Virus record (IMG/VR): IMGVR_UViG_3300025030_000051
Location: 48,829 to 112,828 of that record
Origin: a virus
Reading direction: 5' to 3' (one strand)
Length of the DNA stretch: 64,000 bases
Position numbers and translations under genes: made by a program. The notes under the pieces were generated by a model. It did not search any database and had not been told where the DNA came from. It was given only the letters and a program-made list of their open reading frames with translations. Of this stretch, positions 8,325 through 31,028 are shown in pieces (the stretch's first letter is position 1; every line of letters starts with the position of its first letter).

Positions 8325-8328
8325 GTAA

Positions 8329-12317: not shown

Positions 12318-12465
12318 TTTTTACTCCAATATAAATTGTTATAAACACTTTTTTGATTATCAAAAATCATCGAATAGTTATAACCATTATTTATTACACC
12401 TTATTTTTTAAGTAATAAATTTTTTTCATTTTTATTAAAAGTCCACATTGATTTGACTTCTACAA

Positions 12466-12666: not shown

Positions 12667-12848
12667 AATAAACTTCCGCTTATTTGTAAATAATTTATTT
12701 TATTAACAATTTTATCCCTAAATTGAGATTCACTTAGAAAAAATTTTATACAAGTATCAACAAAATTTGTCAAATTAATCTTATTATTAAAACAATCAAC
12801 TTTAAATTCTTTGTATTGACTTTCTTCTAAATTTATAGATGTAAGCAA
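12663..12848 (-). CDS. Small ribbon-helix-helix-like DNA-binding protein
   Basis: LTSINL strand then two helices (YKEFKVDC, LTNFVDTCI). Confidence 0.45.
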   Translation of the reverse strand: MLTSINLEESQYKEFKVDCFNNKINLTNFVDTCIKFFLSESQFRDKIVNKINYLQISGSLL

Positions 12849-13085
12849 AATAGACCCATTATTTCTTTAATGAATTAAGAAGTTCTTTTTTAACATATAT
12901 GACTATAGAAGAATAAATATTTCCCCCAAGCCCAAGCGCATAATCAAAACCTTCAATTTCAGAACAAAGATTGAAAATTTTCTTGTAAATGTACCAGGTA
13001 ATTTGTTTTTTATTCACTTATGATATAAATATAATGAAAATTTCATTTAATTTTTTGTTACTCAATTTTTCAACTTTGACACTTT

Positions 13086-13475
13086 TTAACATATAATAAT
13101 TTCTTTATTCAACTTATTAGCCATTTCTATTAAAATATGTTTCTTGTCTTCATTGTTTTCTATAAAGAATACTATCTTCTCACAGTACTTTATATAGTTG
13201 TTATAAGTAGCGAATATATGTTTTTTACTGAATTTTTTACCAAATTTATATCTTTCTTCGGCACAATAACTGTTCCAGTGTTTATAATATGGAATAAATT
13301 CTTTATAATTTAATTCAAAATTCAAAGAAAATTTTTTGACAAACTTATCTGTTCCGTTTTCATTATCTAAACCTACTATTTCAGTTTCTGGATGTTCCTT
13401 TTTTATCTTCCACAATAGATCCTGTATCTTTAGCTTTTGAGTGAAAAATTTGCTTCCTGTAATTCCTATTTTCAT
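13086..13475 (-). CDS. SLOG/YspA-like nucleotide-binding protein
   Basis: KIGITGSKFF, GTDKFVKKFS, IVFF. Confidence 0.6.
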   Translation of the reverse strand: MKIGITGSKFFTQKLKIQDLLWKIKKEHPETEIVGLDNENGTDKFVKKFSLNFELNYKEFIPYYKHWNSYCAEERYKFGKKFSKKHIFATYNNYIKYCEKIVFFIENNEDKKHILIEMANKLNKEIIIC

Positions 13476-13990
13476 CCTTTTCCAAGCTTGATTTAATTAA
13501 ATTGTAAAATTGAAATACTGAATTAATAAATGAATTTGAGTCATCATAATATATTTTAAACCTGCACGGATTATTATAATTCTTTATCGATATGTCAGCA
13601 AAAAAATGGATGTTTAATAATGGCTTATCGTGTAAGGTTATATTTCTTTTTTTACACATGTTTAAAATTTCTTCAATTTTAACCTTATCTTTTATATCAT
13701 GCCATAAAAAGAATTCTAATACAATATTCTTATGCAAATTTGAAAAATACTCTATGGAATTAAAAAAAGTGTCTAAATCAGGCAGTGTATATTCTGACAA
13801 CTGTATTCTAACATTAAAATGGTTTTTTTTCAAAATTATTTAAAAAATCTTTTAATTATTAATTCAACTAATTCTAATTTTTGTTTTGTTATTAACATAA
13901 TTGTACTATTTTTAGCACTTTCTTTCACATCAAAGAATTTTTTGTTTAAATGTTCAAGCGCTTTGTTTAATATTATTCTATCTTTTTTAA

Positions 13991-14857
13991 TCATATTTCA
14001 TTCATACCAACACTACACAAATCTTTTTTATTTTTAAATGGACAATAAAAACAATTACGTTTTGATGGATTAGCTTTATAATCAAAATTTAAGTTATAGT
14101 TTCCATTACTATCAAACACGTTATCAACAAAATCAATTAATTCTTTACCAACTTTATTTATTATTCTATCTCCAGATGGTGGCACAAATCTTTGAACCCT
14201 TTTAACTTCATAATCTTGACTTTTGAAAATTTTCTGCTTGAATATCAAAAATTCAACTTTTATTTTGTCTAAATCAATATTATTTTGCTCAGCATAGAAT
14301 TTCTTATATAGTTGCAATTGGGCTCTTTTCATCAAGTCTTTCTTGGCATTTTCTTTCCAGCCTCTATAAGATTTCTTAAAATCGTATAAAACATAAGTAT
14401 TAGAATCAATATGCTTTACAGCACAATCTATTCTTCCTATAAAATTTATATTTGATTTTATTGGTATAGATATTTCTATTTCACAACCCAAGAACTCATA
14501 GCCCTTTTTTAAGAAATAATCACTTCTTTTTTTCTTAAACCATTCTAAAATTTTAATTCCATCTTTATAGAATTCCATCATCTGATCTTTTGATGTAAAA
14601 TCACCGTACTCAGAATATTGATTAAATATCTCTGACATTTTGTTTAATAAAATTTCGTTAAGATTTAGCTCGTTAGCAGTCTTTTCACTTTTTTCATAAA
14701 AATCAATTAAATATGTTTGTAGTGTATCATTTAATGCTGAGCCAAACAGTGAATGAATATTTACATCTTTTACTTTATGTCTATCTATATATAATAACTT
14801 CCACTGTAATTGACAGTTTGTAAATACACTAAACTGTGAAAATGAAACGTGCTTCAT
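13991..14857 (-). CDS. PD-(D/E)xK exonuclease (RecB/Cas4-like)
   Basis: SFSQ..CQLQW, GRID, YDFKK, QLQLY, CFYCPF..C. Confidence 0.85.
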   Translation of the reverse strand: MKHVSFSQFSVFTNCQLQWKLLYIDRHKVKDVNIHSLFGSALNDTLQTYLIDFYEKSEKTANELNLNEILLNKMSEIFNQYSEYGDFTSKDQMMEFYKDGIKILEWFKKKRSDYFLKKGYEFLGCEIEISIPIKSNINFIGRIDCAVKHIDSNTYVLYDFKKSYRGWKENAKKDLMKRAQLQLYKKFYAEQNNIDLDKIKVEFLIFKQKIFKSQDYEVKRVQRFVPPSGDRIINKVGKELIDFVDNVFDSNGNYNLNFDYKANPSKRNCFYCPFKNKKDLCSVGMNEI

Positions 14858-15341
14858 TGTATTAATGCCCCATTAAAAAATATTCATTTCTAGTTATATA
14901 TCTGATTTATATATTGTCATAATTTACTGTTAACATATAAAATTAAATCTTCTAAATCTTCTTTTCTTTCAACTATCTTTTTTCTATATGATTTTAATTC
15001 TTTTTTACTCATATTGTCTATAAAATTAAAGTTTGTCTAATAGATTTGTTCCATAACAATTCCAATTTTCTTTAGAACAGTCTTCTTTTAATTTTTCTAT
15101 TCTTTTTAAACTTATTAGTTTTTTTCCATTAAAACTTCAACTTAAATATCTTCTTCTTTATAAATTACAAGTTCGTTCCCATATAAAATTGTAGGAATAG
15201 AAGATAATATTTTTTCATTAAGTGTCGGATGTAATTTATCAATATAATCTTTTAATCCTTCCATAGAATTTATAGCCTCTAATTCTTTTATAAGTTGCAT
15301 TTTATTTAATACTTTATTTTTAATAATTAAATCTAAATCTT

Positions 15342-15734
15342 TCATTTTGCCCACTTTCCTTTTAATACAATCAAAGCTATTTTACCGTAAACAGAAATAT
15401 CAGTAAAAGAATCTTCTACAGATTCGTTTTTTGGAGCCTCTTTTTTCAATATTAAATTAATCAACCTGCTCATTTTATCGTTCATCCTTGTAATCAATCC
15501 TGTCATTGCTAATTTCAAGTCCTGTTCTGATTCTAAAGCTGTATTCATTGCAATGTTAGTTGGGCCATAATCATACTGTTTCTTTAAAAAAGTTATATAT
15601 TGCTGTGCGCACAATTCCTTAAATTTTTCTGTCATTTCTGGATATTTTTCTTCCATTTCTTTTATCAATTCAAAAGCTGAGTGATCTATATTCTGTAATT
15701 CTATAGAAGGCTCTTGTTTTTTATCTGAATTCAT
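15342..15734 (-). CDS. Nucleotide-modification-associated domain 1 (DUF1599-like, all-alpha pyrophosphatase fold)
   Basis: KKQYDYG, RMNDKMSRL, ESVEDSFTDISVY. Confidence 0.75.
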   Translation of the reverse strand: MNSDKKQEPSIELQNIDHSAFELIKEMEEKYPEMTEKFKELCAQQYITFLKKQYDYGPTNIAMNTALESEQDLKLAMTGLITRMNDKMSRLINLILKKEAPKNESVEDSFTDISVYGKIALIVLKGKWAK

Positions 15735-16034
15735 CTATTTCCTTATTTTTAAGTTTTTAAAAGTTTCATTAATTCTTAAATTATTTTCTATAGTTTGTTT
15801 TAAAGTATTTAATTCATTTGGTATGCATCTAAATCTAAACTCCCATAATACTTCTTTATTTGTTTCTTTATTGTAGTTAAAACTTGTGAATGTCATATTA
15901 AAATATTTGAATCTTTCATTTCTTATAATAGAAACTTCATCTAAAATATCAATAGAGACTTTGTTAATCAAAAAATTATTAATTTCGTTAATAATTGCAC
16001 GATTAAAAAAACCTAAAAGAAATATTTGGTTCAT

Positions 16035-17117
16035 TTAATTTAATATTGTCCCATCAATAACTATTTGCTTGCATGATGAGCTATATTTAAATAATTCATA
16101 ATACTTTATTAGATCTTCCTTTTTGGTAATTCCCCATAAAATAAAAGACTTTCTCTCTAAATCAACTTTAATGTGGTATACAAAATCACATTCAATATTA
16201 TTAAATATAAATTTTTTAAATTCATCAAAATCTTCTTCTGAAATTTTAGATTTTTCTTTTAAATATTTTTCCCATTTATTATAATCTTTAGAATATTTAT
16301 CAAATCCCGGATATATAAAAAATGAGTACATCTCATAAGATTTTACTTGTAATTTTTCTCCATTTGGAGTAATTGAATCAATTTTTCCATAATAATCTTG
16401 ATAAGCTGATGCCCTTTTTGAATTAGTGTAATTCCTAACTAATAGTTCAGCAATTCTAGATTTTAACAATATATTATAATCAACTTTATTATTTTTAATC
16501 AAACTAGATTTCGTATCATTTTCAATTTCTAATATTGCATCATCAATTAGTTTTTTATCAAATTCACCAGTTTTTGGCATAGTTCTTATTTTTTTACCTA
16601 CAATTTTATCCATTGTATTTAATACTTCAAGCATATCTTTATCTAAATTTTTATTTAAATCTTCATGTAACTTTTCAAACTTAATATTATTATTTTTAAT
16701 AAAAGTCTCTATTGTTTCGCCCATAATAAATTTATCATAATCATCTTTATAAATTATTCTTATTATACCCGCTTGTAAAATATTTTTAAGACAATTTTGA
16801 CAGGGTTTCATTGTTGAATATAAAGTTGCACCATTTACATTAATATAATTTTTTGCAGCAAAATCAATCACGTTTAGTTCACCGTGTATTTCATTAACTG
16901 AACTCCATTTATGATGTTCTTCTCTATTTAAATTACGACTATCAAATTTTTCATTACAATGTAACGTATTCGATAACGTCCCATTAAATCCTGTAGATAT
17001 TATTCTTCCACTGTCAACTATTACACAACCAACGTTGTATAAAGCACAAGTAGACAATTTAGAAAATTCTTCTGCTATATTCATAAATAATTTATCATAT
17101 GTTTGCTGTGTTGGCAT
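16035..17117 (-). CDS. dCMP deaminase with a C-terminal extra domain (possible restriction-endonuclease-like fold)
   Basis: STGFNG, HGE, PCQNC; extra ~200 aa with AELL..KID..LQVKS. Confidence 0.8.
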   Translation of the reverse strand: MPTQQTYDKLFMNIAEEFSKLSTCALYNVGCVIVDSGRIISTGFNGTLSNTLHCNEKFDSRNLNREEHHKWSSVNEIHGELNVIDFAAKNYINVNGATLYSTMKPCQNCLKNILQAGIIRIIYKDDYDKFIMGETIETFIKNNNIKFEKLHEDLNKNLDKDMLEVLNTMDKIVGKKIRTMPKTGEFDKKLIDDAILEIENDTKSSLIKNNKVDYNILLKSRIAELLVRNYTNSKRASAYQDYYGKIDSITPNGEKLQVKSYEMYSFFIYPGFDKYSKDYNKWEKYLKEKSKISEEDFDEFKKFIFNNIECDFVYHIKVDLERKSFILWGITKKEDLIKYYELFKYSSSCKQIVIDGTILN

Positions 17118-17129
17118 TTTTATTTTCTA

Positions 17130-17319
17130 TACATTTAATTCTTCGTCTATCAGTTTTTCCAGCATATCATCATAAGTGAAAAAAATATCATGAGGTCCGG
17201 CCCCGTGTAAATTAAATATTAATTGACAAAGCCTAATATCACATTGTTTTTCATATAATTTTAAAAGTTTTTCAATTAAACGTTTTTTTATCTTCTGGTT
17301 TTCTATTTATGTATTTCAT
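17130..17319 (-). pseudogene. Frameshifted second copy of the 12466..12666 gene
   Basis: Near-identical DNA; A7 instead of A6 after GAT gives an early TGA. Confidence 0.7.
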
Positions 17320-18011
17320 CTTATGTTATTGTCTATTTCATATTTAGATTTTGGAATTTTTATTTTTAACTGTTTTTCCAATTCTGTTACATTAGTACAG
17401 CTTTCGTTAAAAGTAGAATAATTCGTACCAGATTTTTGTCTATTACAAGAAGAAAACAGACACCCGAAAAGATTAGACAAATAATCTGCAGAACTATAAT
17501 CACAATACTCTAATTTATCACATCCAGGTAAAAATTCTTCAGCTTCTTTTATTCCTTCTTTTATCATCATATCTCTAAGTAACCAGTGCACCCCAGTGAT
17601 AAATTCTTCTTCACAGAATTTTAGTCTTCTTGACATTTGACCTCTTAGTGAAGTCAAATCTTGCTTCACCCAATATGAACAATTTCTTGACATTAAATTA
17701 TATGTTGTTTGAATTTTAATTTCATCATTTCTAATTTTTTCTAATTTTTCTAATGTTTGAAATGTTTTATCTCTAAATTCTTCATTGTCATTCAATAAAT
17801 TATAAACGTGTGTATAAACAATATACTCAGGGCTTTTTGAAACTTTATAATTAGAAAATTTTACACCAATTCTAGCTCTTGAATGTTGATCCCAAGAGCA
17901 TATAGGAATATTAGAAACTGAATATAGTATTGTTGGTGCATTCCATTCGTGGATATCAACAATTAAATTTTCAACGCCCTTCATTATTTTAATATTATTT
18001 TTTACTATCAT
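17316..18011 (-). CDS. ThyX-like flavin-dependent thymidylate synthase paralogue B
   Basis: DQHSRARIG (RHR-like), LRGQMSRRL, Cys-rich C-terminus. Confidence 0.55.
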   Translation of the reverse strand: MIVKNNIKIMKGVENLIVDIHEWNAPTILYSVSNIPICSWDQHSRARIGVKFSNYKVSKSPEYIVYTHVYNLLNDNEEFRDKTFQTLEKLEKIRNDEIKIQTTYNLMSRNCSYWVKQDLTSLRGQMSRRLKFCEEEFITGVHWLLRDMMIKEGIKEAEEFLPGCDKLEYCDYSSADYLSNLFGCLFSSCNRQKSGTNYSTFNESCTNVTELEKQLKIKIPKSKYEIDNNIR

Positions 18012-18815
18012 TTAGTTTTCCTTAAAATAATTTTTGTCAATATTTTCTAATTCATCGTATTTTAATTTTGAAATTCTAAAAAGTATGTCTTTTTTATTCA
18101 TATAAACAGAATAAGAAGCATATAAAGCTATTAAAGGAAATTTATTATGTATATGTGCTACAATATATTTATATAATTCTCTCAAACTATTTGAGTGATC
18201 ATTGTCTTCAAACTTCATATTAGATAATGACAATAAATTTTGTCCAAAAAAATAAGAATGTGAATAATTTTGTGGTAAAAATGATCTTGCACTTTGCCAA
18301 CTTCCCTTACCTTTGTTGAGTATAAATTCATATAAATCTTTTAACTCATTAAATGTATTTTTTTCATATTCTGAAATTTCTTTGTGATTTTGAAATACAA
18401 AATCAGCATCTCTTTTATCATTATCTCTACAGCCTATTGACATAAAGGATGCAAATGGAGCATTTAGTGTATGAAAATCAAATAACCATCGAGGAACACC
18501 TTTTACTCTAAAAATAAAATTGACCATTTCTCTTGCCTGTGGCAAGGTGTTGTTTGTCAAAACTGCTTTTACCACTTCCAGTTTTGATTCAGGATTTGTT
18601 GATACCCATTTGTTTTTATATTCATTATTTCCCCAAGTTGCAGTACTTGTTAAAAACATTGCCTTATAAGGATTTTTATTATGATCGACCAATTCAATTT
18701 CTAAAGAATCTTGTAGACTTAAAAATTTATTTTGTCTATTTGGATTTTCAGAAGGATGAGTTCCTGTTGATTTTCTTAAATCTTCTATTTTATTTATTTT
18801 TTCTTTTTCTGGCAT
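18012..18815 (-). CDS. ThyX-like flavin-dependent thymidylate synthase paralogue A
   Basis: REMVNFIFRVKGVPR, SWQSARSFLPQ (ARxxLP). Confidence 0.6.
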   Translation of the reverse strand: MPEKEKINKIEDLRKSTGTHPSENPNRQNKFLSLQDSLEIELVDHNKNPYKAMFLTSTATWGNNEYKNKWVSTNPESKLEVVKAVLTNNTLPQAREMVNFIFRVKGVPRWLFDFHTLNAPFASFMSIGCRDNDKRDADFVFQNHKEISEYEKNTFNELKDLYEFILNKGKGSWQSARSFLPQNYSHSYFFGQNLLSLSNMKFEDNDHSNSLRELYKYIVAHIHNKFPLIALYASYSVYMNKKDILFRISKLKYDELENIDKNYFKEN

Positions 18816-18963
18816 GGTAAATCTTTATGTTGTTTTCTTTTAAAAATTTAGATATTAAATAATAAGACAATAATGTTTTATATTGTATTTCTTTTATTGT
18901 AAATTTTTCTATTAAATATAAATTTATTATAATTTTTCCTATTTCTATTGGCATCAAAAATTT

Positions 18964-19375
18964 TAAGGCTTCACTAATTTTTTTAGCTTTTTCTTTTGAT
19001 CTTGACTCATTTTTATTTTAGATTCAATTTTATGTTTTTTACCAAGCATTCCCTTGCCTTTGGCTATTTTCTTTATAATATTTTCTCTGTCAGGATGGTT
19101 ACTAATAACATCACCACCAAATGCTGTTTTAGAAATATTATACCAATATTTCTATCATAAGCTTTTAATTCTTTAATCCAATAAGTTTCTCTCTCATTAG
19201 CATTTTCTTTAGAGCATTCTTCAATAACTTCTTTTTTAAAATTTTCAATACCATATTTTTTAATAGCTCTTTTTATAAGCTTTCCAGAACCTAAATAATA
19301 ATTACGGTTTTTAGAATCTTGACCAATGTAAATTTTATTATTAATCAAATTAATTGTTTTATAAATAATACCCAT
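18964..19375 (-). pseudogene. GIY-YIG homing endonuclease with NUMOD3, frameshifted
   Basis: GIIYKTIN..KIYIGQ..YLGSG..RETYWI; GYN motif broken near 19141; other frame gives GMLGKKHKIESKIKMS. Confidence 0.8.
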
Positions 19376-19492
19376 TTTCTTTCTTAATTAATAACCAAAA
19401 TAACCGCGTCATAACTTTTTTCAACATTTTTAAACGGAAGAGTTCCCATTGCTTCTCTTAAGTTATCTATTTCATTTTTATTCATTATATTC

Positions 19493-22400
19493 CTAATTTA
19501 TTTTTTGAATTTCATAATTTTTCATTTTTGTAAAACCATACTCGTTTTTATATACTACTATTACAATAAAATCTCCTGCTTCTATTTGAATTATATCTTT
19601 AGAATCAAATGTAGTTATATAAATTTGTTCATATTCATCTTCAATAATAATTCTATAATACTCTCTTCCTGTTTTTTTAGATTTTTTACTCTCAATTTCT
19701 GTAATTATTCCACAAGTAATAAATGAACCATTTACAGAATTCTTTAAATCAGTGGGACTTTTAAAATCAGCTATTTCAAGTCCCTCAAAAAATGAATTTT
19801 TTAATATATTAAATTTTTTATTAAAAGGATGAACTGAAAAATAAAATTCAAAATATTTTTTTTCAAATTGTAATTTTTCTTTTTCATTCCAGTCTTGAAT
19901 ATCTTTATTTTCTTCTAATAATGCATCAATTTTAGTTTTAATATTACTAGATTTTATTTTTTTTACTTCATTTATAATAAATTCTAGTAACTTTGAATTA
20001 CTATATATATTTTCAAAAAATTGTAATCTACAAAGAGGTTCATAACTTCTTTTAGAAATTTTATTTTCATTAATTAATTTACAAATTTCATATATATTGT
20101 TTGGATTAAAACTATTTATACTTTCTATATCTTTGGATGAAATTCCTTTTACTATATTAAGACCAAAAGTTATAATTTTATTGTCATAATCAACAGCAAA
20201 GTTATTAGAAGTATATCCACACTTAAAATTACTTATAGTAACACCTTGTTCTTTTGCTTGTTTCATAAACCAACTTAACTCTTTTTTCTCACATTTATTA
20301 AATAGTGAAGAAAAATATTCTAAGGGGTAATGAACCTTTAAATACATAGCAATATAAGCATTTATAGAATATGCTAGCGAATGAGACTTAACAAAAGAAT
20401 ATTGCGAATATTTAATTAATGTATTAAAAAGTTCATTAGCGTTTTTTTCACTTATTCCATTTAATATAGCAGATTTTTTAAATTTAGAAATTTTTTCATT
20501 AAATTCAGTTGTATAATCTTTTTTAGAATCTTGTTTTGCCAAAGTTTTTAATAATTTTCTTATACTATCAGATTCTGTTAAAGTAAAGTTACCTAATTTT
20601 TGTAAAATAAGCATTATCTGTTCTTGAAAAATTATTAATCCATAAGTACTGATAAGATTTTCCCAAATAATGGGATGTATTTTATTATATTTTTCTTTTG
20701 CCTTTTCAGTATTATTTTTATTATAAAAGTATTCATCAACAATACCTGCACTTATAGGTCCTGGTCTCCATAAAGCATTTAAACTTGTTAAATCTTCTAT
20801 ATTTTCCGGTTGCATTTTTATCATCAAATTTATCATTGAATCAGATCCAAATTGAAATATATCTCTAGTATTTCCTTTTTTAAATTCATCATATACTTTT
20901 GCATCATTAAAGTCAGAAGTTAATATTTCAGTTTCCATATGTTTCGTATTATGCTTTTTTTCAATAAGATTAAAAGTATTATTTATAACAGAAGCAGTTG
21001 TAAGTCCCAAAATATCAAGTTTCATATATCCTAATTCAGCAATTCCACGTTCATCAACAGAATCTTGAATACCTGTTATAATTTCACCCCCTATTATCTG
21101 TAAGGGTAAATCAGAATCAACTAATTTTTTATCTGAAATAATAATACCGCTTGCATGTTTTCCAAGCTGTCTTGCTAAACCTTCAAATTTACTACCTATT
21201 TTAACAAATAATTCATAATTATCATCTATAAATTTTACCGTTTTATAATCTTTTAACTTCTCAAGAATTTTTCTTGCATTTTTTATTTCTTTTTCAATAG
21301 TAGAATTAATTATATTATCATTAAAAATTTTTGTTAGTTTATTAGTAGCATCAAAATTTAATTCAAAAATTCTACTTAAATCTTTTACTATTGTTTTAGA
21401 AGCAAATCTACTAAAATTACCCACGTGACAAACTTTGTTAACACCGTATTTATCTTTTAAATAACCTTCAATTTGTTTTTGATGTTCAGAATCAAAATCA
21501 ATGTCTATATCAGGAGGATCTTTTCTGGCACTATTAGCAAATCTTTCAAAAATTAAATTATATTTTAAAGGATCTATTTTTGTTAAATCTGTTAACCATA
21601 AACATACACTACTGGGCGCTGAACCCCTACCAGCACCAGTAAATCCTTCAGTTTTTTCAACAAAGTTTTTAATAATATCTTCAATAATTAAAAAATAGTC
21701 ATTAAAACCTTTTTCTTTAAATAAAGAAAACTCATATTTTGCTTGATTTAAATATTTTTCATGTAAATCATATTTTATTAAACCATTTTTAATTTTATTA
21801 ATATAACCTTGTTTTATTTTTTCTAAAAAAAGTTCATCAGCTTCATTTTTAGTAGAACAAAATTTAGGATAATTGTTTTTATACAATTCAATATCAAAAT
21901 TTTCAACTTTATCAGCTATTTCATTAGTATTTTTTAATGATTCAAACAAAATATCTTGTAATTTAACAGGTTCTTTAATTATTAAATTATTAATTTCTTC
22001 TTCAGTTTTAAAATATAGTTCTCTAGCTTCATAAAACCAATCGTCTAAGGTCATCGATTTAATTGTTTTCTTTTGCTTAATACAATATAGTAAATATTGA
22101 ATATAATAATCACTTTTGTCTAAATAATGAACGTCTAAACCAAAAACTGGTTTTATATTTAATTCTTTACAAAATTCAAGATTAACTAAATTAACTTTTC
22201 TTTGTATTTCTATACTGTTTAGTTGAAATTCTATATAAAAATTATCTTTAAATTTATTTTTATATTTCTTATATAATTCTCTTACTTCATTTATTTTACC
22301 TAAAACTATTTTTTTATTAAAAATACTTCCTAAACAAGCTGTAGTAATAATATTATTGTCATCTAAAAATTCAAAAACCATGTCTTGACTTAATAATGGC

Positions 22401-22783
22401 TTTCTGTAAAAATTAAAAAACCCTCTATTAGAAAGATGAATACAATTTTGTAGTCCTTTATAATTTTTTGCTAAAATAATTAAATGAGAGTTTTTTTCAT
22501 TTTTTTCATCTCCAATATCTTCAGCAGATTTTTTATTAAGTTCAAGAAATCTTTCTTTGTCTTGATAATACAAATCATTAATATAAATCTCACAGCCCAT
22601 TATAGGTTTTATTTTATTTTCTTTACATGATTTATAAAACTTTAAAAAAGACATCATATTACCATGCTCAGTTAAAGAAATAGCTTCACATCCAATTTTT
22701 TTAGCTTTTTCAACTATATCATCTATTCTAGCTACTGCATCACCTAAAGAAAATGTACTATGAACGTGAATTGGTGTGTACAT
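19493..22783 (-). CDS. dnaE: DNA polymerase III alpha subunit (family C), PHP domain intact
   Basis: HVHSTFSLGD, GCE, GRGSA, PDIDIDF, KLDILGL, FQEQ, FVKSHSLAY, C-terminal OB fold. Confidence 0.95.
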   Translation of the reverse strand: MYTPIHVHSTFSLGDAVARIDDIVEKAKKIGCEAISLTEHGNMMSFLKFYKSCKENKIKPIMGCEIYINDLYYQDKERFLELNKKSAEDIGDEKNEKNSHLIILAKNYKGLQNCIHLSNRGFFNFYRKPLLSQDMVFEFLDDNNIITTACLGSIFNKKIVLGKINEVRELYKKYKNKFKDNFYIEFQLNSIEIQRKVNLVNLEFCKELNIKPVFGLDVHYLDKSDYYIQYLLYCIKQKKTIKSMTLDDWFYEARELYFKTEEEINNLIIKEPVKLQDILFESLKNTNEIADKVENFDIELYKNNYPKFCSTKNEADELFLEKIKQGYINKIKNGLIKYDLHEKYLNQAKYEFSLFKEKGFNDYFLIIEDIIKNFVEKTEGFTGAGRGSAPSSVCLWLTDLTKIDPLKYNLIFERFANSARKDPPDIDIDFDSEHQKQIEGYLKDKYGVNKVCHVGNFSRFASKTIVKDLSRIFELNFDATNKLTKIFNDNIINSTIEKEIKNARKILEKLKDYKTVKFIDDNYELFVKIGSKFEGLARQLGKHASGIIISDKKLVDSDLPLQIIGGEIITGIQDSVDERGIAELGYMKLDILGLTTASVINNTFNLIEKKHNTKHMETEILTSDFNDAKVYDEFKKGNTRDIFQFGSDSMINLMIKMQPENIEDLTSLNALWRPGPISAGIVDEYFYNKNNTEKAKEKYNKIHPIIWENLISTYGLIIFQEQIMLILQKLGNFTLTESDSIRKLLKTLAKQDSKKDYTTEFNEKISKFKKSAILNGISEKNANELFNTLIKYSQYSFVKSHSLAYSINAYIAMYLKVHYPLEYFSSLFNKCEKKELSWFMKQAKEQGVTISNFKCGYTSNNFAVDYDNKIITFGLNIVKGISSKDIESINSFNPNNIYEICKLINENKISKRSYEPLCRLQFFENIYSNSKLLEFIINEVKKIKSSNIKTKIDALLEENKDIQDWNEKEKLQFEKKYFEFYFSVHPFNKKFNILKNSFFEGLEIADFKSPTDLKNSVNGSFITCGIITEIESKKSKKTGREYYRIIIEDEYEQIYITTFDSKDIIQIEAGDFIVIVVYKNEYGFTKMKNYEIQKIN

Positions 22784-23354
22784 TTATAATCTCATGTAAT
22801 AAATTCATAATTTCTTTTTTATAATCTTTTATCTTACTTTTATTATATGAATAATAATAACTAGGATGCTTTAATTTAAAAATTTTATTAAAATAATTTG
22901 TATTTTCTAATATTATTTTTAAATTATTATATACTGAATTTCCAAGAGCTACTATATACTCTGGTTTTACAATTTCTAACTCATTATAAAAAATATAACT
23001 ACAATCAATAACATTTTTTTTACTAATTTTATTATTAATAGTAGAACATTTAACTAAATTAGTTATATAAAAGTATTCTAAAACTTTAAATTCTCTAAAA
23101 ATATCCAAAAAGTTTTGACTTGAACTTTTTTGTTTTTCGTGTCCTAAAAATATAAAATAGTTTTCTATAATTCTTTTTGAAGAAGGATTTTGTCCTACAA
23201 GCATTATTTTACTATTTTTTCCAAAAGATGGTAAAAGTTTTCCTGGATCAAAAGCTTTTACAGAATTTACTTTAAGTTCATGTAGTTCACACTTTTGGCA
23301 ACAAATAATTTTTTTAGCTAAATCTTTATCTATCCTATCTAAATTTAAATTCAC
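22758..23354 (-). CDS. Uracil-DNA glycosylase family 4/5-like protein
   Basis: CQKCEL, LVGQNP, YITNLVKC, IVALG, HPSY. Confidence 0.85.
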   Translation of the reverse strand: MNLNLDRIDKDLAKKIICCQKCELHELKVNSVKAFDPGKLLPSFGKNSKIMLVGQNPSSKRIIENYFIFLGHEKQKSSSQNFLDIFREFKVLEYFYITNLVKCSTINNKISKKNVIDCSYIFYNELEIVKPEYIVALGNSVYNNLKIILENTNYFNKIFKLKHPSYYYSYNKSKIKDYKKEIMNLLHEIINVHTNSRS

Positions 23355-23899
23355 AGCAATTTATGATAACTTACAGTATTTATAAAAATAGTACCTAATT
23401 TTAAAATCTCAGTATTTCTACTTAATTTATTATAAACATATATGTAAATTTTAATTAAATTACATATATCATTTTTAAATTTACTATCTATTTCGCTTCT
23501 TATAATAATATGCATATCAAGTAAATTTTTATTAACTATAAAACTAACCATAGAAATACAGGCAGCCATATTTTCATCAAAATAATCTTTTGGTCTAATA
23601 ACTACTTTTCGAGTAAATATATCGTCTTTAGCGTATCTATTGTATAATTTATTAAATATATCACATATTTCATCAAATTCAAGCGCATCATAAGAATGCG
23701 GTGATATTATTTTATTTTCTATTATATAATTAAAAATATTATTTTCTAATTCTTCAATAGTACATTTTAAATATATTTTATAATTTAAATTATAAATTTC
23801 TTTATACTTCTTATTATCTCTAATAACAAAATTATTATTACTTTTTAATTTTTTATTCAATTCTAAATATTTTGTTTCTATTTGATAATCTACTTTCAT
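23351..23899 (-). CDS. Thymidylate-synthase-fold enzyme, dCMP hydroxymethylase/hydroxylase-like
   Basis: DIFTRKVVI, AACIS (catalytic Cys), IRS..FKND, SYH. Confidence 0.6.
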   Translation of the reverse strand: MKVDYQIETKYLELNKKLKSNNNFVIRDNKKYKEIYNLNYKIYLKCTIEELENNIFNYIIENKIISPHSYDALEFDEICDIFNKLYNRYAKDDIFTRKVVIRPKDYFDENMAACISMVSFIVNKNLLDMHIIIRSEIDSKFKNDICNLIKIYIYVYNKLSRNTEILKLGTIFINTVSYHKLL

Positions 23900-24329
23900 T
23901 TTGAGTATTTTTTATAATTTTTTTTGCTATTATTTTTTGATTTAAATTTGAAGTATCTATTTCGATATAATTATTAAAATTAAGTATTTTTTTATTAAAA
24001 GCTTTATTTATAAAATTATTATATTCTCTTAAATGAACTTTAATATTCATATATTTTTCATTAGTATTAACGTGTCTTTGTTTTAATATAGATTCATCAG
24101 CATAAAAATAAATAAAATATGAATTATAATAATTTAAAAAAACTTTTAATAAATTCCAAAAATATTTATTATTAACATTCCTTTTAAATATTTTAGCATA
24201 AACAAGAACAGAAAGAGGTGTTCTATCTGTCATATAATATGAACCACTACTTTGTTTAACTATTTCTTTAAAAGTTGAAGTTTTACCTGAACGATCAACT
24301 CCCTCTAATAATAAAAATACATTATTCAT
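23853..24329 (-). CDS. Deoxynucleoside monophosphate kinase
   Basis: EGVDRSGKTS P-loop, DRTPLSVLVY, IDTS. Confidence 0.85.
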   Translation of the reverse strand: MNNVFLLLEGVDRSGKTSTFKEIVKQSSGSYYMTDRTPLSVLVYAKIFKRNVNNKYFWNLLKVFLNYYNSYFIYFYADESILKQRHVNTNEKYMNIKVHLREYNNFINKAFNKKILNFNNYIEIDTSNLNQKIIAKKIIKNTQNESRLSNRNKIFRIE

Positions 24330-24408
24330 TTACAAAAATTGTTTAATTTTTTCAAAAGAAATGATATTTTTATAAAATTAATACACTTACTTATCATAGA
24401 TTTTTTAC

Positions 24409-25527
24409 TCAATAATTTGATTTTTCATAATTAAAAATATCTTTGAATTTCTCTTTATAAAAATTAAGATCTGTAGCCATTTTAATATAATCTTTATTTT
24501 CTTTAATTTCTTTAAGTGCTACTTCATAATTAATTGATTTAATTTTATCAGGAACTTCATTCAATTTTACAACATATTTTCTAAATACTTTTAATAATTC
24601 TGGATAATGTTGTAATCCTCTTTCTAAATTAGCTTCATTGTGAATTAATGAAATTGTATCAGATGCTAATGCTTCAAAGAATCGTATATTAGAAAAATGA
24701 TTAGAATCATAAGATGGAATAATCATTGTAAACCTTGATTTTCCAACTTCTGTATTATACTTATAAATGTTTACAAGTGTATTAATATCTGCAAATTTAT
24801 CCTTTAAGTAAATATTATTTGAAAGTCTTAAATCTTCTAAATTTTGCTTGAGTTTAATAATCTGTGATGTAATATATGTTCTTTTTTTTGTTAGTATTGT
24901 ACAGCCAAAAGTAAAATCAATATTTTTAAAAGATGGATTAATATTATTATAAAAAAATCCGTATTCTACAAATGGCACCCATCTCATATTTTCTGGTGGG
25001 GGACAATCAAAAAAGTACCATCTATTTTTAATAAAATCAGGCTCTTGTGGATCTGTAATCATTTGAAATGATTCAATACCTTTTACTTCTTGAATATAAT
25101 ATGCAAATAATGCTCTATTAAGATAACTAAAATTTATATTAAAATTTGTTTTATAAAAATCACTATGTAATGAATTTTCATAATCTTGTTTAATAGGATC
25201 ATTAATGCCCCTTCTATAATTTTTCATAACTCCTAAATAAACTATTAGATGCTTATCAATTTTATATTTACTTAAAATTTTATCTATAAATGCATATGAT
25301 TTTTTCCAAGATTTTTCTGTAAAATAATCATCTTGCGCATCAATAATAGTAATATTAGGAATATCATATAATGCAAAAAATTTCTTATCTATAGTTTTTC
25401 TTTCCTTGTATGGATTAATAAAATAATAATGATTTTTAGTATCTAAAAAAAGAAATTTAAAATAGTTATTATATTTAGCACTTTCATATCTAGATATCAT
25501 TTTTAAAAAACTCAATAAAATATTCAT
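24409..25527 (-). CDS. Putative DNA glycosyltransferase (GT-B, beta-glucosyltransferase-like)
   Basis: ITDP, DFTFG, SRFTMIIP, RFFEALAS..SLI; nucleotide-modification context. Confidence 0.55.
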   Translation of the reverse strand: MNILLSFLKMISRYESAKYNNYFKFLFLDTKNHYYFINPYKERKTIDKKFFALYDIPNITIIDAQDDYFTEKSWKKSYAFIDKILSKYKIDKHLIVYLGVMKNYRRGINDPIKQDYENSLHSDFYKTNFNINFSYLNRALFAYYIQEVKGIESFQMITDPQEPDFIKNRWYFFDCPPPENMRWVPFVEYGFFYNNINPSFKNIDFTFGCTILTKKRTYITSQIIKLKQNLEDLRLSNNIYLKDKFADINTLVNIYKYNTEVGKSRFTMIIPSYDSNHFSNIRFFEALASDTISLIHNEANLERGLQHYPELLKVFRKYVVKLNEVPDKIKSINYEVALKEIKENKDYIKMATDLNFYKEKFKDIFNYEKSNY

Positions 25528-25559
25528 ATTTGTTTAATTTACTTTATTGATTAACTTTT

Positions 25560-26555
25560 TCATAAACTTTTATAAATATTTATTATTGAATTATAAGTTT
25601 TTAAAATACCAAGTCTGTCGTTATAAGCTTCATTTGGAAGTTTATAATCAAAAAATTTATAAAAATTTTCAGATATACCATTGTGATTTTTTAAATAATC
25701 TAAATCTTTATTTATTTTTATATGTTTATTTATAAGTTCGTCAAACGTAATACCTGTTAATTCACAAATAATATTTAAATAATGCTTAAAAGGCATCGGT
25801 TTATTTCTACTAATTATAAAATCTTTTCCAGATAAGTTATCAAAATTATTTAATATAAAATAAAACATTTTGGCAAAATATTCACTTCTCATATAGTCTT
25901 TAAAAATTTCAGGATCTAAAAATACTGAGAGTTGTTTATTAGTTTTGTTTATTTTATTTAAATAAATTCTTTCTAATATTTTTCTTATCATAGATGAATT
26001 ATCATATGGAGCATCACCATAAATAAATACAGGCTTTATTGTTAAAAATTTTTGTTTTTTAAGCGATTGTTTTATAGCAAGTTCAGCACTATATTTTGTT
26101 AAACCATATATAGTTTTTGGATTTATTGTAGCAGTTTCATTAAATTTTCCATTATTTTTCATATATTCATCTGGATCAAATATAGCTGTTGTTGAAAAAT
26201 TTATAATTTTACATTTTTTTTTAAGAGCTATATCTATTAAATACTGTGTTCCTAAAACGTTAGACTTAACAGCATCATAAAAATATTTTTCACACTTATC
26301 AGTATTTACATAAGCAGCTGTATGAATTATTATAGAATTTTCATCTAAACTGTTTTGTATATAATTTAAATTTTTTTTACTGGTAATATCAATTTCAGAA
26401 TCTTTAATTTGCTTGTTTTTTAAATAATGAAAAACATTAGTATAAGTCGCATACAACTTATTATATATAATTTCATATTTATTGTAATCTAAAATATCTA
26501 TAATAGATTTAGCTAACATACCTGTATGACCAGTTATAAACAATTTAGTTTTCAT
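25560..26555 (-). CDS. NAD-dependent nucleotide-sugar epimerase/reductase (RmlD-like SDR)
   Basis: ITGHTGMLA, HTAAY, NVLGT, YGLTK. Confidence 0.85.
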   Translation of the reverse strand: MKTKLFITGHTGMLAKSIIDILDYNKYEIIYNKLYATYTNVFHYLKNKQIKDSEIDITSKKNLNYIQNSLDENSIIIHTAAYVNTDKCEKYFYDAVKSNVLGTQYLIDIALKKKCKIINFSTTAIFDPDEYMKNNGKFNETATINPKTIYGLTKYSAELAIKQSLKKQKFLTIKPVFIYGDAPYDNSSMIRKILERIYLNKINKTNKQLSVFLDPEIFKDYMRSEYFAKMFYFILNNFDNLSGKDFIISRNKPMPFKHYLNIICELTGITFDELINKHIKINKDLDYLKNHNGISENFYKFFDYKLPNEAYNDRLGILKTYNSIINIYKSL

Positions 26556-27519
26556 TTAATAATTTTATAAAGTTTTTATGTTCCTTAAATGAAATTATCC
26601 TATTATCTAACTTTTTTATTATTTCTTCATAAGACAGATCACATATAAATTTATTATATTTAAAAAATACAGTAAATCCATTTTTAGCTAAAATATTACA
26701 ATTATCTATATCATCATCAAACACAAATTTTTTGTCATTATTATTAAAATTTTTAATAATATATTTTTCTTTTTGTTCCTCCCAAATTATTGCATCATAT
26801 TTAAATTTATTATTTTTAAGCCATTCTAGTGTATCTGAATAAATTCTAGATATTTTTTTATATGGTCTTGCTGTTATCAAAATAATAAAATAATTTCTTT
26901 TACTTAATTCATCTAACAACTCTTTAGAATCATCTATAATAGCCATTTTTCTTTTAATGCCAGATAAGCGATACAATGTTTTTAATTCATATAATTGTAA
27001 TTTAGGAATTATTTTTTCTAATTCTTCTAAATTTTTAATATTTTTATTTAATTTTTCATTAACAAAATCTATAAAACATTTTGGCCAATTTGCAATAACC
27101 CCATCAATATCAATAAATGCAATATTTTTATCTTTTTTATTTTTTATATTATTTAACATAATATTTTGATCAAACTTATCGTTTACAACATTAGATTTAT
27201 CTATAAATTTATTATAAATTTGTTCATAAGTAAAACCATTTATTATAAGAGTTTCTAATAAATATTTTAATGTATCTATTCCTTCTTCTAATAAATTATC
27301 TTTAACGTCATCACCGTCTTTGTCGACGTGTGATTTCCAATCAACCTCATCTAATAATTCACTTGCTTCTTTTATCGTGGCTAAAATAAATTCTTTATTC
27401 CACTTTATTGTTAATTCTTTATCTTCAATTATTTTACTATAATCAATATTATATTTTACTTTAAAAAATTTTTCAGTAAATTTTTTTTGAATATTATAAA
27501 TTTCTTCTAATCTATCCAT
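26545..27519 (-). CDS. All-alpha dNTP pyrophosphatase (dCTPase/dUTPase/MazG-like) fused to a HAD 5'-nucleotidase
   Basis: EASELLDEVDWK, EEGID; DIDGV, ITAR, FDDD. Confidence 0.8.
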   Translation of the reverse strand: MDRLEEIYNIQKKFTEKFFKVKYNIDYSKIIEDKELTIKWNKEFILATIKEASELLDEVDWKSHVDKDGDDVKDNLLEEGIDTLKYLLETLIINGFTYEQIYNKFIDKSNVVNDKFDQNIMLNNIKNKKDKNIAFIDIDGVIANWPKCFIDFVNEKLNKNIKNLEELEKIIPKLQLYELKTLYRLSGIKRKMAIIDDSKELLDELSKRNYFIILITARPYKKISRIYSDTLEWLKNNKFKYDAIIWEEQKEKYIIKNFNNNDKKFVFDDDIDNCNILAKNGFTVFFKYNKFICDLSYEEIIKKLDNRIISFKEHKNFIKLLNEN

Positions 27520-28419
27520 TTATTTTTCAAATCTTTCAATTATTTGTTCCATTTTTATTTTGTGTGACCATTGTGCATAACGACCAATATGAATTATATT
27601 ATTTCCAGTTTTATTTATGTTATCATAAGAAAATTTAATTTGAGCAAATGGAAGTGTAATTTTATCTAAAACCTTATATTCATCCATTAAAATATCTGTT
27701 TTTCCTTTCACTTCAAAAACCACATAATCTTCAAATAAATTACAACGATGCCATTGAGTAGAAGCTATTGAATAGAAATATTCTAATTGTAAACTATTTT
27801 TTATGTTTTTTAAATAATTGTTATATTCACATTTAAAAAATGTTGTATTGAATGCTGTAAAATCATGATTATTTATATTAATTTTGGATAATTTTTGAAA
27901 CATATTTATAGGAAGAGTATTGATTAAAAAATCATATTTTTTTTCTTGTGATGATACTAAATATAAAATATTTTTCTCAATATCAATTTTTTTTACTTTA
28001 TCTATAATAATTCTTTCAAAAACTAATTCTTCTAATCTTTTAAGAATTAAATTATAGTCAATATCAAAAACAGTAAGTTTATTTTTACCAGAAGATAGTA
28101 CTGATGGGTGTATTTCATTCTTATTTAATTCTCTAGTTTTTAAAGCATATTTTTTCTTAAAATTACCATCAATATAATCTTTTATTGAACTATCTTCGTA
28201 CATATAACCAATTTTAACTTCTCTAATTTTTATGTCTTCTAATATAATTTTATTAAAAAAAGATTTTGTATGTTTATTTACTTCAAGTAAACGAGGTCCT
28301 AGTTGAAATTTATTAAGATTTTGCCATCCACCAATACGATCAGTAATGAGTTCATATTTTTTATTATAAAATGCTGAAACTAATCCAGCAACACCCCCTC
28401 CAATAACAAATAATTTAAT
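27520..28419 (-). CDS. FAD-dependent oxidoreductase, UDP-galactopyranose mutase-like; probable ATT/ATA start
   Basis: Frame stays open upstream of the track ATG: FVIGGGVAGL (GxGxxG), DRIGG, GPRLL; INTLP; C-terminal GRYAQW; GGAG 6 nt before ATT at 28419. Confidence 0.7.
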   Translation of the reverse strand: MKLFVIGGGVAGLVSAFYNKKYELITDRIGGWQNLNKFQLGPRLLEVNKHTKSFFNKIILEDIKIREVKIGYMYEDSSIKDYIDGNFKKKYALKTRELNKNEIHPSVLSSGKNKLTVFDIDYNLILKRLEELVFERIIIDKVKKIDIEKNILYLVSSQEKKYDFLINTLPINMFQKLSKININNHDFTAFNTTFFKCEYNNYLKNIKNSLQLEYFYSIASTQWHRCNLFEDYVVFEVKGKTDILMDEYKVLDKITLPFAQIKFSYDNINKTGNNIIHIGRYAQWSHKIKMEQIIERFEK

Positions 28420-28790
28420 ATTTATCTCCCATTCGAGAATTGCTTGTTAGCTTTATGAATATTAAAATCAAAAATAATTAATTTATTCCAATATTTCAAA
28501 TCATTTATCATCTTAATTCTTATAGGCTGCCAAATAAATCTCCAAAAATCATCAGTGATATAAGAAATTTTCTCCTGTCTTCCCAATTCCAAGAATCCAA
28601 TACATGGTTGACACGTATATATTATATTAAAAATCTCTTTTGATATTTCAATCATTTTTTTAAAATTTCACTAAAATATTAAAATCTTTTGCGAACAAAC
28701 ATTATCAACCAATCTATAAATTGTATTCCATAAGCTCCTTTAATTTTTATTTTTTCATTGTATAACACTTATAATTAAATAACATTCCTA

Positions 28791-29474: not shown

Positions 29475-31028
29475 TTAAACAAAAATTAATGCTTGCTGGT
29501 ACCATAGTGGAAATAATTTTCTATTATTTTTATAGAAAAAAATAAAACTACTATCTAATATATATGTTTTGCACCAGTCATTTTCATTTCTTATAGATCT
29601 ACCACTGCTTTGAATTATTGTTTTTGCTGTCTCTAAAAGATACCAATCTTTAACTCTTTTCTTTTTTTCTACAATAAAATTATCACCAAGATTTGGAAAT
29701 GGTGTTTTAACTATAATTTGAAATCTTGACAGATCGTCGTATAAGTCAATACCTTCTGTCATTGATGGAGAAATTAAAATTGTTGGTTTATCACTTTTTA
29801 AATGTAACTCATACATTTCCATTCTATTGCTAGAATCGTGAGAAATAAATCTATTTGTCTTTACATTTTTTACAATATAATCAGCTATTTTATATGATGT
29901 ACAATGTATCAATCCTTTGTCTAATCTGTGTTCTGCAATTAATTTAGTTATTGCATTAGCTATTTTTGGTAAATTATTATCAATATCCCTATAATTTAAA
30001 GATCCAACATTTACTGAAAATACAGTTCTGTTTTCTTTTTTAAATGGTGAATCTAATGATAAGAATTCAGTTTCTTCTACTGATATTCCTATATTTCTAC
30101 AATATATTTCTTTATCTAATATAGTTCCACTCATTAATAATATTTTTTCACCTACACAAAATAGTTGTTTATGAGAATATTTAGAAGAAAATAACGGTTT
30201 TAATGAAAGTTCATCTTCTTCTTTATTTACACTCAATATCCATTCATCTTTATTAAATCTTGATACACATCTGTCTAATTGTTTAATATACCTTTCAATA
30301 TTATTTAATTGTTTTAATAAATTTTTATTTTTTATTAACTGATCTTGACTTAAGTTTTTAATTTTTTGGTCTAAATAATCTTTTATTTTAACAAGATTTA
30401 TTATTAAATATTCTTTTATCCAAGAAAAAATTTCATCAATAGAGTGAATTTTATTTTTTGGCCATTCTAAATTGTAATTTTCTATATTATATTTATTTAT
30501 GTTTATGGAGATAAAATCTGAAATTGCAGCATCAATTGTGTGTGCCTCATCCACAACTAATAATTTTCTTTGCTTAATTTCATCTGAATATTCTATATGA
30601 TTTAAGAAAAAAGCAACATTAGTTAAAGATATTTTATTACTTAAAAAATTTCTTTTATCTTGTTGATAAATACATTGACAATATTTATTTTTAAAAACTT
30701 TATTTATTAATGATCCAAGTTGACATGAAACATATTTTCCAGGACATTCATAATGTTCTTTAGACCATATTGAAGATATAAAAGAAAAATCATTTTGATA
30801 TTGTTTTTGTAAAATTCTTTGAGGAGTTATAACCCATGCTTCATTTAAATATCTTGCAACTGTAATTGCAATAGCAGATTTGCCAGATCCGGGACTACCC
30901 TCAAGCAAAGCAAATCTTTTGTTTTTATTTATAAAAATATTTAAAATAAAATTAATAGCTTCTTCTTGTTGTGACCGTACCTTTTCAAAAGGAAAAAATT
31001 GCAACCAGTTTTTCTTAGTTATCATCAT
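29475..31028 (-). CDS. DinG/Rad3-like SF2 helicase
   Basis: GSGKS, DEAH, SGT, EGID, QSSGRSIR. Confidence 0.9.
   Translation of the reverse strand: MMITKKNWLQFFPFEKVRSQQEEAINFILNIFINKNKRFALLEGSPGSGKSAIAITVARYLNEAWVITPQRILQKQYQNDFSFISSIWSKEHYECPGKYVSCQLGSLINKVFKNKYCQCIYQQDKRNFLSNKISLTNVAFFLNHIEYSDEIKQRKLLVVDEAHTIDAAISDFISININKYNIENYNLEWPKNKIHSIDEIFSWIKEYLIINLVKIKDYLDQKIKNLSQDQLIKNKNLLKQLNNIERYIKQLDRCVSRFNKDEWILSVNKEEDELSLKPLFSSKYSHKQLFCVGEKILLMSGTILDKEIYCRNIGISVEETEFLSLDSPFKKENRTVFSVNVGSLNYRDIDNNLPKIANAITKLIAEHRLDKGLIHCTSYKIADYIVKNVKTNRFISHDSSNRMEMYELHLKSDKPTILISPSMTEGIDLYDDLSRFQIIVKTPFPNLGDNFIVEKKKRVKDWYLLETAKTIIQSSGRSIRNENDWCKTYILDSSFIFFYKNNRKLFPLWYQQALIFV

Follow-up and report, generated by a model that had tools for sequence, protein, structure and literature searches.

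A putative cytosine hypermodification cassette of miniaturised enzymes beside the DnaE gene of an uncultured aquatic phage

The DNA analysed here, called the window, is a stretch of 64,000 nucleotides (bases 48829-112828) of the 112.8-kb IMG/VR virus record IMGVR_UViG_3300025030_000051, whose completeness is estimated at 63%. Positions 15342-28425 of the window hold a row of genes around a gene for a DnaE-type DNA polymerase. This row could be a pre-replicative cytosine hypermodification cassette of the glycosylated-5-hydroxycytosine kind, built from miniaturised enzymes, an assignment for and against which the arguments are about evenly balanced. At its centre stands a 182-aa protein with the alpha/beta fold of thymidylate synthase (TS), termed mini-TS in the following. 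A first-pass annotation made from the sequence alone had described the genes as contiguous and co-oriented, which was confirmed, all named genes being on the minus strand. All eleven of its gene calls hold at superfamily level by profile and fold searches, that of a DUF1599-like protein only weakly.

Direct matches in Pfam, PHROG or NCBIfam identified an NT5C-type haloacid dehalogenase (HAD) domain, a short-chain dehydrogenase/reductase (SDR), a nucleotide kinase, a uracil-DNA glycosylase (UDG) superfamily protein, DnaE, one of two ThyX-like proteins and a dCMP deaminase. For mini-TS, a 372-aa glycosyltransferase (GT) and a flavin adenine dinucleotide (FAD) protein, single-sequence searches of Pfam, PHROG, NCBIfam and the PDB gave no matches, and these three were identified by profiles and structural models.

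A miniature enzyme of the thymidylate synthase fold

The protein encoded at 23351-23899 has the TS alpha/beta fold, on which profile, model and fold search agree. An exhaustive phmmer search yielded 25 representative relatives at E ≤0.001, most of them 160-180 aa long, and searching the PDB with the profile of this family gave matches of 1e-6 to 1e-4 to thymidylate synthases and to T4 dCMP hydroxymethylase. The top match is the D169N mutant of E. coli ThyA, with TS matches reaching 1.4e-6. PF00303 is matched by 12 of 20 family members (best 7e-8); the window protein itself matches none of the Pfam families, PF00303 included, and its AlphaFold model is confident, with a predicted local distance difference test score (pLDDT) of 91. 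As the TS sub-families tie in profile and fold searches, the fold alone does not reveal the mini-TS chemistry.

E. coli ThyA, T4 gp42 and RB69 gp48 served as references in a residue alignment, which is numbered according to E. coli ThyA. The catalytic Cys146 as well as R126, R166 and H207 are present in the three references and in the window protein and are invariant over 30 aligned sequences, as is S167 save for a Gly in P0007, the closest relative of the window mini-TS. Position 177, which specifies cytosine, is Asn in ThyA and Asp in T4 gp42, RB69 gp48 and every family member. The window protein carries this Asp within the motif IRS..FKND; the first-pass annotation had taken it as the mark of a dCMP enzyme, and it does align with ThyA Asn177. 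Position 169 is Asp in ThyA and T4 gp42 and Asn in RB69 gp48. Among the 26 family members other than the window protein, 19 have Asn, 6 have His and 1 has Ile at this position, and the window protein has Ile or a gap, Asp169 being replaced in every member of the family. The family consensus H162...R-S-Q-N169...D177...S205-x-H207 is the same as in RB69 gp48, which the family aligns with in hhalign at a probability of 95.5.

The segment with the folate residues E58, W80, W83 and Y94 is largely absent from these proteins of 165-182 aa, the N-terminal alignment being unreliable there. Its absence would be compatible with a loss of folate use. Because Asp169 is missing and the folate-binding segment apparently so, T4-type hydroxymethylation is unlikely.

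TS homologs that combine N177D with D169N make 5-hydroxy-dCMP (5hodCMP) using flavin and O2, and nine diverse D169N homologs that were tested were all active (Lee et al., NAR 2026, PMC13326640). The flavin-dependent 5hodCMP synthases described are RB69 gp48, DLP3 gp80, RL38J1 gp216 and HY126 AfhB (PDB 9iqu/9iqc; PMC13326640). Mini-TS shares with them the TS fold, Cys146, R166-S167, H207 and Asp177. Furthermore, the RSQN of the family equals that of RB69, H162 and S205 are common to both, and the chain ends soon after S-x-H. In contrast to the 217-238 aa of the published enzymes, the mini-TS proteins have 165-182 aa, with most of the stretch that links the first sheet to the dimer-interface helix deleted. 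By these residues the mini-TS family looks like a set of compact 5hodCMP synthases. The product of the window mini-TS itself is less certain, since the diagnostic Asn169 is missing.

In tblastn searches against 50,697 cultured phage records no close homolog was found for mini-TS and one further family member, nor for the FAD protein, the SDR and the HAD fusion protein described below. Among the models in BFVD, no viral TS homolog of similarly small size was matched well.

Kinase, fusion protein and sugar genes

A compact Tmk-like P-loop nucleotide kinase of 158 aa is encoded at 23853-24329. It has a GxDxxGKT P-loop and matches Thymidylate_kin (8.2e-6), PHROG 761 (8.7e-7) and, in the P-loop, TIGR00041; RB69 gp45 was reached at only E 0.03. 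The kinase and mini-TS frames share 47 nt (23853-23899).

The gene at 26545-27519 encodes a fusion protein, in which residues 1-125 form an all-alpha domain resembling NTP pyrophosphatases and residues 130-280 an NT5C-type HAD phosphatase. The HAD domain matches NT5C at 2.5e-7 (31.2 bits versus a cut-off of 24.8) and carries the DxDGV-type motif FIDIDGV. In the window protein no Pfam family matches the N-terminal domain; the ortholog in contig L006 matches dUTPase_2 (1.5e-5) and MazG (4e-4). With a profile of the domain, PDB matches were marginal (E 0.024-0.2), among them the MazG-like 2q73 (0.024) and dimeric dUTPases (0.035). Through its orthologs the domain is thus assigned, with some caution, to the MazG/dimeric-dUTPase superfamily. 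Similarity of the fusion protein to RB69 gp56 was weak (probability 12%), and that of the HAD fusion to RB69 gp51 was not significant by BLASTP.

The FAD protein of about 300 aa (27520-28425) has a GxGxxG Rossmann motif and a minimal fold that is best matched by UDP-galactopyranose mutases (UGMs), whose overall three-domain fold it shares. A model from 14 orthologs has a pLDDT of 83, and its best Foldseek match is the T. cruzi UGM (6e-13). The family profile matches the A. fumigatus UGM at E 0.009, which is marginal but specific and extends beyond the Rossmann part: WTRxTYF aligns with FYRATIF, the stretch containing the substrate-binding R327 of A. fumigatus. With E. coli Glf, hhalign aligned only the Rossmann start, the first 30 residues. 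The C-terminal motif GRFAQWSH resembles GRxxxWxY, which we take to be the C-terminal motif of UGMs, with His in place of Tyr. No ATG, GTG or TTG start occurs in this gene before 28203. At its 5′ end a Shine-Dalgarno sequence, GGGAG (28430-28426), precedes two candidate start codons, ATA at 28425, sharing bases with the upstream TAA stop, and ATT at 28419. The ATT is the probable start, because the resulting N-terminus matches that of the orthologs, which use ATG; ATA 28425 is the alternative.

An extended SDR is encoded at 25560-26555. It has TGxxGxxG and YxxxK motifs and matches RmlD_sub_bind (1.2e-21) and Epimerase (2.4e-19) above the Pfam cut-offs. In the PDB, RmlD entries were matched at 3.8e-10 to 9e-8 versus 1.6e-5 for GalE, and all NCBIfam equivalog scores stayed far under their cut-offs. 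The protein thus appears closest to dTDP-4-dehydrorhamnose (4-ketosugar) reductases, and the role of sugar epimerase that the first-pass annotation had predicted is not established. In E. coli O52, Fcf1 and Fcf2 are a dTDP-6-deoxyhex-4-ulose reductase and a dTDP-fucopyranose mutase, which together lead to a nucleoside diphosphate (NDP)-6-deoxyhexofuranose. We take this pairing of an SDR 4-ketoreductase with a UGM-family mutase as a possible lead for the identity of the window sugar only.

The probable GT-B protein of 372 aa (24409-25527) appears GT47/CgeB-like and has only 4 homologs among 5.8 billion proteins. The window protein has no Pfam match at 0.01. Across the family, sub-threshold Pfam matches were obtained with Glyco_trans_1_2 in 5 of 5 members (best 3.5e-5) and with Exostosin_GT47 in 4 of 5 (1.3e-4). 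Structural neighbours of the Atlas model, whose pLDDT is only 0.62, are GT47, CgeB and GT1 proteins (template modelling scores 0.55-0.67). No PDB entry was matched by the family profile. The protein is a candidate DNA glycosyltransferase.

Conservation of the cassette in related contigs

Sixteen IMG/VR contigs that encode a mini-TS (L005-L020) were compared with the window. Kinase and SDR are present in all 16, with SDR orthologs matching at up to 1e-112, the MazG-HAD fusion in 15 and the mutase-like protein in 14. All five genes, mini-TS included, occur together in 13 contigs. A ThyX pair was found in 12 of the 16, with a single gene in L018, and DnaE in 11. Mini-TS adjoins the polymerase gene in 10 contigs; in L005 a partial DnaE lies about 6 kb upstream. 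The genes are usually arranged as helicase, NrdJ, mutase-like protein, MazG-HAD, (dUTPase), kinase, SDR, mini-TS, DnaE, ThyX-A and ThyX-B. Reading frames overlap in these cassettes, and the SDR gene, placed between those for kinase and mini-TS, is translationally coupled to them. The relatives carry a gene for a trimeric dUTPase between those for MazG-HAD and kinase (e.g. L006:5733-6194), which the window cassette does not contain.

A search for related loci in viral contigs that was seeded with the window mini-TS or P0007 found none. The metagenome contig L025 carries the closest relative of the window mini-TS, also an Ile169 variant. Here a class I S-adenosylmethionine (SAM)-dependent methyltransferase gene and a 157-aa ORF (open reading frame) lie between SDR and kinase (L025:904-2136), where the window has GT-B. 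The methyltransferase in place of GT-B suggests that the gap between SDR and kinase may serve as a variable 'decoration' slot. At L025:3827-6797 the DnaE ORF breaks off at 597 aa and a DUF7487 ORF comes next; the polymerase gene may be interrupted or split here.

Comparison with known cytosine modification systems

Published cytosine hypermodification clusters comprise RB69 gp45-48, DLP3 gp78-80 and RL38J1 gp214-216; RL38J1 also encodes a UGM, the published mutase parallel being gp84 (PMC13326640). As in these phages, the window mini-TS gene lies beside those for a Tmk-like kinase and a glycosyltransferase. The hexosyl-5-hydroxycytosine cluster of Rhizobium phage RL38J1 (Pootjesviridae) has the same set of TS homolog, Tmk-like kinase, GT-B and pyranose mutase, and in both cases the mutase would imply a furanose donor for DNA glycosylation. 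Differences from RL38J1 are the pairing of the window mutase with an RmlD-like reductase and the use of DnaE as polymerase. Given the RL38J1-like adjacency of kinase, GT and TS genes together with a UGM, a furanose as the product of a pyranose mutase, which the first-pass annotation had proposed, is a reasonable inference; that the sugar goes onto DNA was not supported.

The T4 pathway (gp42, gp56, gp1, the alpha- and beta-glucosyltransferases and Cd) follows the same logic, with a dCTP pyrophosphatase, an Asp177 TS-fold enzyme, a kinase, a deaminase and a glycosyltransferase. Nevertheless, the window kinase is Tmk-like and not gp1-like, the window pyrophosphatase shares its chain with a HAD phosphatase, and T4 uses host UDP-glucose and needs no sugar enzymes. 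Of the cytosine modification pathway that had been proposed, modelled on T4, the part that stands is the cytosine-type TS-fold enzyme, kinase, pyrophosphatase, GT-B and mutase beside a polymerase gene. The analogy to a T4 hydroxymethylase is not supported: mini-TS has neither Asp169 nor an acidic residue 143, and the folate segment is apparently missing as well.

Relation to Flavobacterium phage immuto and a separate glycosyltransferase island

The nearest cultured relative found for the flanking genes is Flavobacterium phage vB_FspM_immuto (Immutovirus). In both lineages a DNA modification module, putative in that of the window, lies directly upstream of the polymerase gene, and GroES/GroEL genes follow the polymerase gene in immuto as in L006 and other relatives of the window. 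The module of immuto (NC_055915 20000-42300, just upstream of GroES/GroEL) consists of its own DpdA/QueD/QueE/FolE/QueF-like (7-deazaguanine) genes and is combined with PolA, whereas in the window lineage the mini-TS cassette goes with DnaE and the ThyX pair. As the 7-deazaguanine module is found at the same position, the cassette occupies a slot that is used for DNA modification. Between the two lineages, the modification module seems to have been swapped as one block together with the polymerase.

A separate sugar island lies at 1984-14857 of the window, with genes for a PD-(D/E)XK nuclease, GT4, GT4, GT2, a hexapeptide acyltransferase and GT2; the two GT4, two GT2 and the acyltransferase genes are at 1984-12327. 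The island is syntenic in immuto (L027, NC_055915 35283-64569) and in Microcystis phage Mel-JY01. The GT4 pair of immuto is 44-48% identical to the window pair, which is kept in 5 of 5 relatives. This pair (9171-12167) was considered for a role as DNA glycosyltransferases and dropped, since immuto has the same pair and island and lacks the cassette. The island is therefore independent of the cassette and no evidence for DNA glycosylation.

Other genes of the row and their surroundings

The source of the record is an uncultured, AT-rich, aquatic phage (genome 77% AT; GC 20-30%). A T4-type baseplate protein in the record identifies it as a tailed phage, and nearly all window ORFs of at least 100 aa lie on the minus strand.

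Next to mini-TS, a family-4-type UDG superfamily protein is encoded at 22758-23354 (PF03167 1.1e-18, NF040953 1.1e-13), with GQNPS and HPS motifs. DnaE, a family C DNA polymerase alpha subunit (19493-22783), has PHP, DNA_pol3_alpha, finger and HHH domains and no cultured relative above 30% identity. Between the genes for DnaE and ThyX-A lies an ORF resembling GIY-YIG (SegE-like) homing endonucleases (19073-19375; PF01541 6.7e-5), to which a phmmer comparison found nothing similar in the related loci.

ThyX-like protein A (18012-18815) matches Thy1 at 1.8e-8 (34.9 bits versus a cut-off of 24.8). ThyX-like protein B (17316-18011), a divergent paralog with a Cys-rich tail, has no Pfam match and was linked to ThyX through L018. 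The single 335-aa ThyX of this contig (L018:11739-12746) is matched by protein A over residues 2-252 (5.6e-59) and by protein B over residues 100-304 (4.8e-39), which makes the two overlapping paralogs of one ancestor; compared directly, their profiles match at E 0.22. The canonical RHR-x7-S motif of the L018 protein looks degenerate by eye. We assume that the ThyX pair performs ordinary dTMP synthesis.

The dCMP deaminase gene (16035-17117) matches dCMP_cyt_deam_1 (7e-19) and PHROG 174 (3e-46); the protein has a C-terminal extension of about 200 residues, which matches no family beyond PHROG 174. The row ends with a 130-aa ORF at 15342-15734, whose match to DUF1599 (NMAD1; PF07659) is weak (E 0.0032; 18.2 bits versus a cut-off of 25). 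Further small ORFs are found at 15735-16034 and 15142-15354. A few kb upstream of the cassette, genes for an N6/N4 DNA methyltransferase (31015-31719; PF01555, 9.7e-36) and a glycosylase of the Ogg/HhH-GPD type (32682-33251) are found; an additional DNA modification by these is possible.

Proposed pathway

The catalytic steps given here, their order and the sugar acceptor are our reading of folds, residues and synteny. The MazG-like domain of the fusion protein would hydrolyse dCTP or dCDP to dCMP. The Cys of mini-TS would then attack C6 of dCMP and install a substituent at C5 without folate, which, going by the family signature, would most likely be a hydroxyl introduced with flavin and O2 as in RB69 gp48 and HY126 AfhB. 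Phosphorylation of the modified dCMP to the dCDP would be carried out by the Tmk-like kinase and completed to the triphosphate by a host NDP kinase, and DnaE would incorporate the product. According to their folds, the RmlD-like SDR and the UGM-like flavoprotein may convert a host NDP-hexose to an NDP-furanose, e.g. UDP-Galf or a dTDP-6-deoxyhexofuranose. Judging by its position, the GT47/CgeB-like GT-B may move this sugar onto the C5 oxygen in DNA. The dCMP deaminase and the ThyX-like pair would supply dTMP for the 77% AT genome.

Our confidence differs between the parts of this pathway. That the phage makes a pre-replicative C5-modified cytosine is probable. Glycosylation of DNA in this particular phage falls slightly short of an even chance, and a furanose donor made by the SDR and the mutase-like protein is a tentative idea about which we are rather doubtful. 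Still more speculative is that the Ile169 mini-TS, the mini-mutase, the RmlD-like reductase and the GT47-like transferase make an undescribed DNA base, either a cytosine with a hexofuranose (Galf or 6-deoxyhexofuranose) on the C5 oxygen or one with a C5 substituent besides OH and CH2OH. These would then be the smallest TS- and UGM-fold enzymes known, and a varied decoration would come from the slot between SDR and kinase, which holds a GT here and a SAM methyltransferase in L025 and is empty elsewhere. We consider this unlikely.

Several observations weigh against a glycosylated-5-hydroxycytosine pathway. In mini-TS, the window loop RSEIDSKFKND has Ile or a one-residue deletion in place of the diagnostic Asn169, and the loop RGQIIDKFFND of P0007 also reads as Ile or a gap there, both loops being one residue shorter. 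At position 143 the window protein has Met and most of its family Leu, which is ThyA-like, whereas Glu was reported in RB69 and DLP3. The UGM-like protein falls short of known UGMs by about 70-200 residues, and neither the window protein nor two orthologs match the Pfam family GLF (PF03275). Outside this lineage, GT-B homologs occur in only one other, an unrelated jumbo phage without such a cassette. Moreover, the GT-B gene is found in none of the 16 related cassettes and is also absent from L025, which leaves the SDR and mutase-like genes of the relatives without a cassette GT. No NDP-sugar pyrophosphorylase (PF00483 NTP_transferase) is encoded in the 63% complete record. Given this, the absence of the GT from the related cassettes and the closeness of the supposed epimerase to RmlD reductases, calling the pathway complete-looking, as in the first-pass annotation, was too strong.

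Alternative explanations

The cytosine might be modified at C5 as a nucleotide while SDR, mutase-like protein and GT-B act elsewhere, e.g. on virion proteins or in the downstream GT island, so that the DNA would stay unglycosylated. The sugar island of the window, its synteny in the cassette-less immuto and the retention of the GT4 pair, but not of the cassette GT-B, in the relatives fit such a division. However, the SDR and mutase-like genes travel with those for mini-TS, kinase and MazG-HAD and are missing from immuto, which has the island. Together with the translational coupling of the SDR in the relatives and the location of the window GT-B gene at the exact kinase/TS position of known DNA glycosyltransferases, this makes a separate target rather unlikely. 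Two of these proteins have also been weighed as redox partners of mini-TS: reduced flavin might be supplied or regenerated by the UGM-like flavoprotein together with the NAD(P)-binding SDR. Published hydroxylases indeed require reduced flavin, yet RB69 gp48 is active in E. coli without a dedicated reductase (PMC13326640). The structural relatives of the flavoprotein include the A. fumigatus UGM-NAD(P)H complexes 5vwt and 5vwu, and the lack of a cassette GT in the relatives would agree with a redox function. Nevertheless, the profile match spans the R327 substrate-binding motif of UGM, beyond the FAD domain, and the nearest relatives of the SDR are NDP-sugar reductases, and a redox partnership is most improbable.

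For mini-TS itself, a T4-style function as folate-dependent dCMP hydroxymethylase, with the sugar placed on 5-hydroxymethylcytosine, would account for the Asp177 that it shares with T4 gp42. Against this stand the replacement of Asp169 in all family members, a hydrophobic residue 143 where T4 gp42 has Asp, and the apparent loss of the segment with E58, W80, W83 and Y94. Furthermore, according to the title of PDB entry 1bjg, D169N ThyA fails to promote opening of the imidazolidine ring of the folate, and we regard T4-style hydroxymethylation as very improbable. The whole row might also be ordinary nucleotide metabolism that only boosts dTTP, in which case mini-TS would be a degenerate protein that binds dCMP or acts as a regulator, and the sugar genes would be neighbours with no relation to it. 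The dTTP demand of a 77% AT genome would be met in this way, the deaminase, ThyX pair and Tmk-like kinase all have ordinary activities, and the window mini-TS departs from the tested signature. On the other hand, Cys146, R126, R166, S167, H207 and D177 are (near-)invariant in about 30 sequences of 25-50% identity and the mini-TS model is confident. In addition, four cassette genes lack a close cultured-phage homolog, and the cassette sits in a known DNA modification slot. Ordinary metabolism is thus quite improbable.

Implications

A pathway of the glycosylated-5-hydroxycytosine kind is already published. New are the miniature enzymes, the pair of RmlD-like reductase and mini-UGM, the DnaE context, the module swap with immuto and the violation of the D169N rule. 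The elucidation of glycosylated 5-hydroxycytosine DNA, in T4-like phages and phages of Rhizobium, dates from no earlier than 2025-2026; if our reading is true, this chemistry would extend to an uncultured aquatic lineage that uses DnaE and is related to immuto. It would involve a minimal pyranose-mutase fold and a TS-fold enzyme that is about 25% below the size of all those characterised, and such small enzymes for modified dNTPs and NDP-furanoses would be useful as reagents. The window mini-TS breaks the published D169N diagnostic rule and thereby bears on its generality. In one and the same genomic slot, a 7-deazaguanine module with PolA and a cytosine cassette with DnaE would represent a modular swap between related phages.

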